Below are positions 22,377 through 24,084 of a DNA stretch of 64,000 nt, one piece after another. The stretch lies in assembly GCA_949002095.1 (NCBI GenBank), contig CARJMT010000007.1, positions 70,024 to 134,023 on the forward strand. Reading direction: 5' to 3'. The position numbers and the translations under genes are program-made. The notes below the pieces were generated by a model. It was not told the DNA's origin. It did not search any database and was given only the letters and a program-made list of their open reading frames with translations. The DNA is from an uncultured Lachnospira sp. (GTDB lineage Bacteria > Bacillota > Clostridia > Lachnospirales > Lachnospiraceae). Positions within the stretch are counted from its first letter, which is position 1. Every line of letters starts with the position of its first letter.

Positions 22377-22500
22377 TAAAGCACACAGGAACCCCAATGT
22401 TGGTGTTAGACGCACTGTTGTTGTTGGCATTTCCGTTGTTGTTGACATTACAGCAGTTAGTAGAGTTACCAGAGTTAACAGTACTCAACCACCAGTTGCA
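22377..22500 (-). repeat. DGR template repeat (TR)
   Basis: About 124 bp matching 23286-23410 except at A positions of the - strand; encodes 14 AAC/AAT Asn codons; lies 207 nt upstream of the RT. Confidence 0.88.
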
Positions 22501-22601
22501 GGACAATTCCCCAAACAGCAACAAGTATCAGCATTTAACTCGCAACATTGAGATAACTGAGGAAACATAAAAAGTAACCTAAGTCTATATATTAAATTAA
22601 C

Positions 22602-23045
22602 CTATTTCCGCTTATTATGCTTCATAAAGTTAATATGACTTTCTTCTTCACTCTCTAATAAATTTTGTATCAGTTCTTCTTCGTCAACAATTAAACCTAC
22701 AACACGTTCACGAACTGACATCTTTATATGAAGTCTTTCTCTGGCATCCTGCATTTCCGCAAGGATATCTTCACAACAATCATACATATTCATTAGAGCG
22801 ACTTTCTTTCTATTGTATAAGAAAGATTCGTCATTATCTTCGCCAACACAATCATAATATGTATTAGCATTTCTAATAAGTTCTCGACATAAATCAATCA
22901 TAGGTATTGAATATACGAATCTGTATCTCTTGGGAAATACTTTTTCATTCATTACCATAGACGTAACTTCTTTCCTTATTCGTGCTGCATTATGAATAAA
23001 CTCAACCTCTGATGTGGCTCTGTTTCTTCGTAATACATTACTCAT
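22602..23045 (-). CDS. Avd-like DGR accessory variability determinant (putative helical-bundle protein)
   Basis: 147-aa basic protein positioned between the target gene and the TR, as in the mtd-avd-TR-brt arrangement. Confidence 0.45.
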   Translation of the reverse strand: MSNVLRRNRATSEVEFIHNAARIRKEVTSMVMNEKVFPKRYRFVYSIPMIDLCRELIRNANTYYDCVGEDNDESFLYNRKKVALMNMYDCCEDILAEMQDARERLHIKMSVRERVVGLIVDEEELIQNLLESEEESHINFMKHNKRK

Positions 23046-23241
23046 TTAAGGTTTCCAACTCCTCTTCAAGCTGGTTAATTTGTGCTCTCAAGTTCTCTCT
23101 GTATAGCTTAGTCTCTGCATATTCAATGTCAGAGATTAAGCCCTCAGAATACTTAAGAGTTTTATAATCAGAATTAGTAAGTAACTGCTTTAAAGCAGTA
23201 ATCTCACCGTTAATTTGCTCAGCTCTTGTATTCATTTCCAT
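23038..23241 (-). CDS. Small coiled-coil protein (67 aa), hypothetical
   Basis: ORF whose stop codon overlaps the Avd-like gene's start. Confidence 0.35.
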   Translation of the reverse strand: MEMNTRAEQINGEITALKQLLTNSDYKTLKYSEGLISDIEYAETKLYRENLRAQINQLEEELETLNE

Positions 23242-23271
23242 ATTTTATATCCTTTCTGTTGACATCAAAGT

Positions 23272-24084
23272 TTAGGCAGAGATTCTAAAGCACACAGGAA
23301 CCCCAATGCCGGTGTGAGACGCACCGCCGTTGCTGGCACGTCCGGCGTAGCTGACAAGACAGCAGTTAGTAGAGTTACCAGAGGTAACAGTACTCAACCA
23401 CCAGGTGCAGCGACTTCCGCCATTTCCTTTACCTTTGATTCTATGTTTAAAACTATTTGCAAATAATGGATATTGAACATGTTGTCCACTACTATATCCT
23501 TTAGTTCCCCAAACAATAGAACCAAACACTTCATATTCACTAGGTAACCATAGATTACCCATATCATGCCATCCCCAAGAAGTTGAATCTGTTAATAATC
23601 CACTTCCTGAATATTTATACTCCAACAAAGTTCTTTTACCCTTAATAACAGCTTTTAAGTCAGCTGGTAATTTAGGATATATTGTTTCAAGCAAATATCT
23701 ACATACATTTGAAGCTAAATATGGAGAAGCTACTGATGATGTTCCATTATTGTTATTAGTAGTATTCCATTGAACATAATCATTTAAACAGTCAATACTA
23801 ATCCAATCAATATGATGTCCAAGTTGCTGGTCTGTAGTTTTATAATAGGTATCAATGCCTGCAATCTGCATTTTAACTACTTCTCCACCTGTTAATGTAA
23901 TTGTCTTATAATCACCAATTCTCAAATCATCAAAGTCAGCATTTGCACACTTAGTTTTTAACTGTGCCCAAGTATACTCAGATAACTCACGACCTTCATA
24001 AAGTTGAGGACCTTCAGTAGTAATTTCATAGATATTACCAATATCATACTCAACTCCATTTAATAGCAATTTTGTAATAGCCAT
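23272..24084 (-). CDS. DGR target protein, putative receptor-binding tail-fibre protein with a C-terminal variable C-type-lectin-like domain
   Basis: The last ~42 codons (CTWWLSTVTSGNSTNCCLVSYAGRASNGGASHTGIGVPVCF) form the VR; last gene of the tail-fibre operon. Confidence 0.8.
   Translation of the reverse strand: MAITKLLLNGVEYDIGNIYEITTEGPQLYEGRELSEYTWAQLKTKCANADFDDLRIGDYKTITLTGGEVVKMQIAGIDTYYKTTDQQLGHHIDWISIDCLNDYVQWNTTNNNNGTSSVASPYLASNVCRYLLETIYPKLPADLKAVIKGKRTLLEYKYSGSGLLTDSTSWGWHDMGNLWLPSEYEVFGSIVWGTKGYSSGQHVQYPLFANSFKHRIKGKGNGGSRCTWWLSTVTSGNSTNCCLVSYAGRASNGGASHTGIGVPVCFRISA
23286..23410 (-). repeat. DGR variable repeat (VR) at the 3' end of the target gene
   Basis: About 17 mismatches to the TR, all at TR adenines (coding strand). 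Confidence 0.88.

Follow-up and report, generated by a model that had tools for sequence, protein, structure and literature searches.

The window analyzed here, a 64,000-nucleotide stretch of contig CARJMT010000007.1 (GenBank assembly GCA_949002095.1, forward-strand positions 70,024 to 134,023), carries on its minus strand all the parts of a diversity-generating retroelement (DGR): a target gene, a 67-aa open reading frame (ORF), an avd-like gene, a template repeat (TR), a spacer RNA, a reverse transcriptase (RT) gene and a terminator-like hairpin (Table 1). The variable repeat (VR) lies inside the coding target gene, forming its C-terminal 41 codons, which are followed by four further codons (RISA), and the noncoding TR precedes the RT start by ~325 nt. 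Intact reading frames are present for the RT, the Avd-like protein and the target. The region is very probably a complete DGR of an uncultivated tailed phage of the human gut with a genome of ~144 kb, the size being that of contigs that carry an identical target protein.

Comparison of the template and variable repeats

The TR and VR form a direct repeat that was aligned without gaps over 125 nt, with 86% identity and 17 mismatches. A preliminary description of the sequence had given about 17 differences and had ended the template copy one base short, at 22500. It had also claimed that the mismatches fall exclusively at template adenines, and this was confirmed: all 17 of the 17 are at an adenine of the coding (minus) strand of the TR (a T on the plus strand of the copy starting at 22377), with no mismatch at a non-adenine position anywhere in the window pair. 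When the substitution spectrum was tabulated from the pairwise alignment, as had been suggested, the changes from TR to VR on the coding strand were nine A>G, six A>C and two A>T. Given 36 adenines in 125 nt, the chance that 17 randomly placed differences would all fall at A is 2.2e-11 (hypergeometric).

The TR and VR peptides quoted earlier match frame 2 of the minus strand exactly, and 14 AAY asparagine codons were indeed counted in the TR; the number of altered VR codons, reported as thirteen, is 12 (11 Asn and one Ser, AGT>GGT), and three AAC codons are untouched. TR adenines are almost confined to positions 1 and 2 of AAY, AGT, ACY and ATT codons, with 35 of the 36, and 17 of the 17 that are mutated, at codon position 1 or 2. 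Because of this placement, up to 20 residues can be redrawn per round without introducing stops. An AAY codon mutated at positions 1 and 2 can yield 15 amino acids and no stop codon, and the theoretical protein repertoire is ~1e20.

A search of the 64-kb window with the TR pattern in which A was replaced by N (0 matches expected by chance) returned only the two copies, and a laxer segment-wise scan of the same 64 kb likewise revealed no third. A second VR or target, as in phages nd4, nd12 and Toutatis, was looked for in the window and not found, and a related contig of 139 kb holds only two copies of the 3′ block. A 79-aa TTG-initiated ORF (22285-22524, minus strand) crosses the TR in the frame used by the VR; rather than a gene, it probably reflects the fact that the TR copies coding sequence.

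Comparison with related genomes

Comparison with related phage genomes, set beforehand as a test of the adenine pattern, was carried out with nine TR/VR pairs from related contigs of ~140-146 kb. The exact A-to-N pattern of the whole TR had no match in IMG/VR, since some non-A changes are present in the relatives; a pattern shortened to the 3′ part succeeded. The nine pairs have 167 mismatches in all, of which 164 fall at TR adenines (71 A>G, 48 A>C, 45 A>T), and the TR is nearly invariant. Non-A polymorphisms of the TR (columns 16, 17, 18, 28 and 121) are accompanied in every genome by the same base in the cognate VR, which argues for repeated copying from TR to VR.

Four genomes are near-isogenic: the window and the related genomes L016, L017 and L018, the last three from one run series (ERR31995xx-31996xx). 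Their VRs differ from one another at 16-22 positions, all of them TR adenines, with a constant TR; outside the VR, 1-6 differences were found in the 5.5-8.7 kb compared (Fisher p = 1e-26 to 1e-36). With so many changes in the VR and so few elsewhere, homing must have taken place within the time that a few point mutations need to accumulate. Judged from these sequences, the DGR is, or very recently was, active in the window lineage, and the comparative evidence points to unidirectional transfer from TR to VR with ongoing diversification. The past mutagenic homing proposed in the preliminary description is therefore supported both by the A-only pattern inside a complete cassette and by the near-isogenic genomes. 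As near-isogenic phages from different samples, the latter amount to a natural experiment that could serve to measure DGR turnover in the gut.

The same pattern was seen in the target proteins. The 90%-identity cluster of the target contains 46 distinct sequences. In 15 aligned members, residues 1-224 are identical save a few substitutions, and the differences are almost restricted to VR codons whose TR counterparts are AAY, ACT, AGT or ATT. When 36 homologues with identities down to 64% were aligned, the columns without consensus in the C-terminal 45 residues were the TR Asn codons. Variation in the protein alignments is limited to the codons of the diversified part (Table 1). Separately, L018 has a C>T change at position 4673 (window position 23412) that converts Arg225 to Cys, two bases upstream of the repeat; Arg225Cys is present in two cluster members (P0133, P0134) and is outside the TR-homologous stretch and not at an adenine.

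Target, reverse transcriptase and accessory proteins

The target protein matches Pfam PF19789 (DUF6273) over residues 102-268, with 41.4 bits against a gathering threshold of 23.5, and its predicted model (pLDDT 91.7) has dozens of C-type lectins, along with FGE-like domains, among its structural matches. The model thus places the VR on a predicted C-type-lectin fold of the DUF6273 type. Earlier work on gut phages described DUF6273 as a DGR target domain resembling C-type lectins (PMC10743442; PMC11792537; 10.1101/2024.10.15.618418).

The longest ORF for the RT is 423 aa and begins at an ATG at 22169, and its extra 117 nt (22053-22169) are inside the RT-2 RNA described below. The gene was placed as in Table 1 because gene calls in L017 and L018 are 384 aa, AAGGAGG stands before the GTG, and the upstream 117 nt are occupied by the RNA; the ATG at 22169 is probably not the true start, and the extension is probably untranslated. 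The protein matches RVT_1 and PHROG 1423 (phrog_1423, 'reverse transcriptase'), and scores far under the thresholds of group II intron, retron and defense-RT models. Relatives found by tblastn were in Roseburia phage Shimadzu (50% identity), in phages of Faecalibacterium, Bordetella and Vibrio, and in ANMV-1, all of them DGR-bearing phages. The SQ motif ([I/L]GxxxSQ in motif 4) is a hallmark of DGR RTs. The statement on SQ in motif 4 was not found in PMC2602772 or PMC5758913. The best PDB match of the window RT is the Bordetella phage enzyme bRT (8ub7_A, E = 3e-15), and in the alignment LGSETSQ pairs with IGSLTSQ (common motif GSxTSQ) and RYMDD with RYMDD. By sequence, the RT belongs to the DGR type and, among solved structures, is closest to bRT.

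The accessory protein encoded upstream of the TR has the fold of an Avd, a four-helix bundle. It does not reach the thresholds of the Avd family HMMs (NF033474 and the Pfam 23S rRNA-intervening sequence protein family), and profile searches against PDB sequences found no Avd chain; one of 10 members of its family touches NF033474 (DivGenRetAVD) at E = 0.0097. It has the Avd fold and would act as an Avd, yet is one of a divergent sequence family. Because this family escapes current HMMs, pipelines for DGR detection that require an Avd match will under-annotate such cassettes. An Avd-like homologue with 57% identity (P0169) is on a 132-kb contig labeled as a Ruminococcus sp. metagenome-assembled genome at NCBI; that label is the sole, weak hint of a host.

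The 67-aa ORF, predicted to be helical, is kept, at 65-69 aa, in all close relatives and is missing in distant ones; its matches to known families were all sub-threshold. The hairpin and T-run at the RT stop codon are likely to mark the 3′ end of the cassette transcript. No promoter above shuffle expectation was detected between avd and the TR.

Table 1. Positions of the cassette features in the 64-kb window
Feature	Position	Strand	Description
DGR target gene	23272..24084	-	270 aa; short low-confidence N-terminus, then DUF6273/C-type-lectin-like domain, VR at C-terminus
Variable repeat (VR)	23286..23410	-	125 nt; encodes residues 226-266 of target (C..WWLSTV..GVPVCF)
Diversified part of VR	23307..23406	-	Repeat positions 5-104; includes every TR adenine seen varying
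Invariant A-poor 3′ block of VR	23286..23306	-	TTGGGGTTCCTGTGTGCTTTA; candidate initiation-of-mutagenic-homing region, same as TR 3′ end
67-aa helical ORF	23038..23241	-	Between target and avd; stop overlaps avd start
Avd-like accessory protein	22602..23045	-	147 aa, four-helix bundle
Template repeat (TR)	22377..22501	-	125 nt, 36 adenines, 14 AAY codons in VR frame
First spacer hairpin	22306..22363	-	Directly 3′ of TR; holds AGACAAAGUAAG at 22349-22360
RT-2 RNA (Rfam RF03077)	22041..22261	-	Structured spacer, TR to RT start
DGR reverse transcriptase	20898..22052	-	384 aa, GTG start at 22052 behind AAGGAGG ribosome-binding site
Terminator-like hairpin and T-run	20883..20905	-	Overlaps RT stop codon; consensus scan only

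Spacer RNA

The only Rfam family matched in the window is RT-2 (RF03077), which was found over its full model length in the ~325-nt spacer between TR and RT, immediately upstream of the RT gene (76.4 bits, where the gathering score is 40; E = 1e-17). RT-2 also lies between TR and RT in nine of nine related loci tested, including that of Shimadzu (83-145 bits), and in L002 it extends from 11 nt past the TR up to the RT start. In the RT-2 consensus the 5′ hairpin has AGACAAAGUA in its loop, and this hairpin aligns poorly to the window. A better candidate is the hairpin directly after the TR, separated from the remainder by an AT-rich insertion of ~100 nt; it folds at -18.3 kcal/mol (z = -1.9) and holds a perfect AGACAAAGUAAG 17 nt past the TR, a sequence also present in the TR flanks of L001, L002 and L012. 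Compensatory substitutions in its inner stem were read from the sequences of L001, L014 and the window. This hairpin may thus correspond to the 5′ hairpin (P1) of RT-2, in which case the spacer RNA of the window lineage would be an RT-2 RNA split by the insertion. By analogy with the BPP-1 spacer, the spacer RNA may provide both the RNA scaffold and the primer from which cDNA is made.

No published link between RT-2 (RF03077) and DGR spacers was found in the literature searched, in which only the Rfam 15 paper turned up. An orphan Rfam motif is now tied to the TR-RT spacer across a clade of Firmicutes-phage DGRs, and the inclusion of the cultured phage Shimadzu in this clade offers a handle on cDNA priming by non-Bordetella DGR RNAs.

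The 3′ block and recognition of the recipient

The shared 3′ end of TR and VR is present as described earlier, when cattggggttcctgtgtgcttta was proposed as the candidate initiation-of-mutagenic-homing (IMH) region. The shared end holds; the segment had to be trimmed, since the A of its 'cAtt' is diversified (A>G in L014 and L016), so that only the last 21 nt, TTGGGGTTCCTGTGTG(C/T)TTTA, form the invariant block. The flanks of TR and VR diverge straight after this block. TR position 121 (C/T), four bases before the end, co-varies with the VR, which means that information transfer reaches almost to the end of the repeat. Since the 21-nt block is identical in both copies, it cannot by itself tell recipient from donor; with transfer extending nearly to the end, the mark of the VR as recipient must be in the last few bases or downstream.

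In five distant relatives (L002, L004, L007, L008 and L012) a GC-rich hairpin stands 20-50 nt downstream of the VR, together with a fixed difference, A in the TR against C in the VR, four to six bases before the repeat end (TGATTC vs. TGCTTC). The latter looks like a fixed IMH*/IMH difference, which the window lineage appears to have lost along with the hairpin. In the window lineage the 67-aa ORF occupies the place that the hairpin has in these relatives. One speculative scheme, which we consider improbable, is that the target is recognized without BPP-1-type cis elements, the determinant being either the 67-aa coiled-coil protein as an accessory factor or the unique 3′ flank of the VR, and that the AGACAAAGUAAG loop of the RT-2 RNA supplies the priming adenosine.

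Phage context

When the cassette was compared by megablast with 50,697 phage records, no match appeared, and the structural module matched only fragments from human fecal samples at <85% identity; the curated collection therefore does not contain this phage. Genes upstream of the target include one with a PHROG 'tail protein' match, and portal, terminase and DNA polymerase genes are elsewhere in the window. The target is thus at the distal end of the structural/tail module of a tailed phage. Also upstream of the target, a 691-aa protein (25638-27713, minus strand) has degenerate internal repeats and, in the gene tables of relatives, a faint aRib domain match; it may be a fiber or adhesin-like tail component. 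The structural module contains two giant ORFs on the minus strand, of 1737 aa (34061-39274) and 2931 aa (39388-48183); the 1737-aa protein had no PHROG match at E = 1e-5. A strand switch occurs at ~17650-17990, with genes from 52 to 17651 on the plus strand, among them that of the 1311-aa DNA polymerase (7659-11594), and everything from 17989 onward on the minus strand. No tRNA genes were detected in the 64 kb.

Proposed mechanism

In the proposed mechanism, the target, 67-aa ORF, avd-like gene, TR, RT-2 spacer and RT would be transcribed from the minus strand as one cassette, and the RT together with the Avd-like four-helix-bundle protein would bind the TR-spacer RNA. Reverse transcription of the TR would start inside the final few bases of the repeat, with C, G and U copied faithfully and any base inserted opposite A. 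The resulting cDNA would take the place of its 125-nt homologue, the VR, at the 3′ end of the target gene, so that the redrawn residues would be on the C-type-lectin-like ligand-binding domain. The complex of RT and Avd, the priming by the spacer RNA and homing itself are modeled on the Bordetella phage BPP-1 DGR; by the same analogy, the target may be a receptor-binding tail protein that adapts host range.

Evaluation of alternative explanations

Several observations weigh against the assignment as a working DGR with a tail-protein target. The IMH/IMH* difference is absent, the 3′ block being the same in TR and VR, and no GC-rich hairpin or cruciform was detected downstream of the VR (a 76-nt stretch spanning and following the end of the VR gave a folding energy of -1.8 kcal/mol, z = +1.05). 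Both are within known DGR variation, because identical IMH and IMH* have been reported in some DGRs and high-confidence inverted repeats in only 34% (PMC5758913). The Avd-like protein has no Pfam or NCBIfam match at E values up to 0.1. The tail or receptor-binding role is drawn solely from gene order beside the PHROG 'tail protein' match, and the support for activity of the window copy itself is comparative only. Finally, the DGR genes have lesions in three of nine related genomes, so that the cassette can decay: a CAG>TAA nonsense codon in the RT of L014 (~6488), a +2 insertion within a run of T in the L026 RT (~5660) and a -1 frameshift in avd of L027 (~4778). The VRs of all three still differ from their TRs only at adenines, and the L026 and L027 frameshifts could be assembly errors. 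Stop-codon recoding was considered for the L014 RT and rejected, as TAA is the stop codon of most neighboring genes.

The related sequences are all metagenome assemblies, and the VRs of DGRs are in general heterogeneous within samples. The VR haplotype of the window might accordingly be the assembly consensus of a mixed population, the DGR being real and this exact VR perhaps never having existed in one virion. We regard this as unlikely, though not negligible, as the window protein is recorded in NCBI, Logan and ENA, each VR position fits a single homing event from the TR, and the reading frame is intact and encodes a plausible protein; if it were so, the DGR interpretation would be unchanged.

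The lesions listed above, with the lack of a GC hairpin after the VR and of an IMH/IMH* difference, would also suit a relic, in which the A-only differences date from past homing and the window copy no longer works. A relic is very unlikely: in the window the three ORFs (RT, Avd-like and target) are undamaged, and genomes only 1-6 substitutions away from it (in 5.5-8.7 kb, outside the VR) differ at 18-22 TR-adenine positions of the VR. The tips of phage receptor-binding proteins are in general frequent hot spots of selection and recombination, but an ordinary duplication that diverged without reverse transcription, by point mutation with diversifying selection or by phage recombination, is vanishingly improbable, since neither process can confine 164 of 167 differences to the A of the other copy or yield all three substitution types from A, and that other copy is noncoding, just upstream of an RT gene, and invariant while the first varies. 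A complete DGR thus remains the preferred reading of the locus.

Comparison with known systems

DGRs are common in human-gut phages, and finding one here is unsurprising. Some interest attaches to the near-isogenic VR series, to the association of RT-2 with the DGR spacer of this clade, to the divergent Avd family and to the lineage-specific 67-aa ORF.

The prototype, the DGR of Bordetella phage BPP-1 (mtd-avd-TR-brt), has Mtd as its target, whereas the target here is of the DUF6273 type. The window cassette differs further from that of BPP-1 in its accessory protein, which has no detectable match to Avd models; in its candidate IMH, which equals IMH*, with no GC-rich inverted repeat after the VR; in the extra 67-aa ORF between target and avd; and in its spacer RNA, which is ~325 nt and of the Rfam RT-2 family.

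Roseburia phage Shimadzu (LR596903) is more similar. It has the closest annotated RT (50% identity, as noted above), an annotated Avd with weak but significant similarity to the window protein (E = 4e-4), an RT-2 RNA between avd/TR and RT (144.9 bits) and a target at the end of the tail module. Unlike the window phage, Shimadzu is a 45-kb phage whose target is annotated as a 431-aa tail fiber protein, and its cassette has no 67-aa ORF and an RT-2 RNA without the large insertion.

DGRs that target DUF6273 proteins are found in the Faecalibacterium phages Lelie, Roos, Pioen and Toutatis and in phages nd4 and nd12, where the VR is at the C-terminal end of the DUF6273 domain, with a predicted C-type-lectin fold (PMC10743442; PMC11792537; 10.1101/2024.10.15.618418). 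The RTs of these DUF6273-targeting gut Firmicutes phages are 30-36% identical to the window RT. Two targets are present in several of the phages, one being a tentaclin or a Hoc-like protein with Ig domains; the window has one VR in 64 kb. By every criterion that can be tested on sequence, save features known to be dispensable or variable, the element in the window is a DGR. Among described elements it is closest to the DGR of Shimadzu and to those with DUF6273 targets in phages of Faecalibacterium and other gut Firmicutes.

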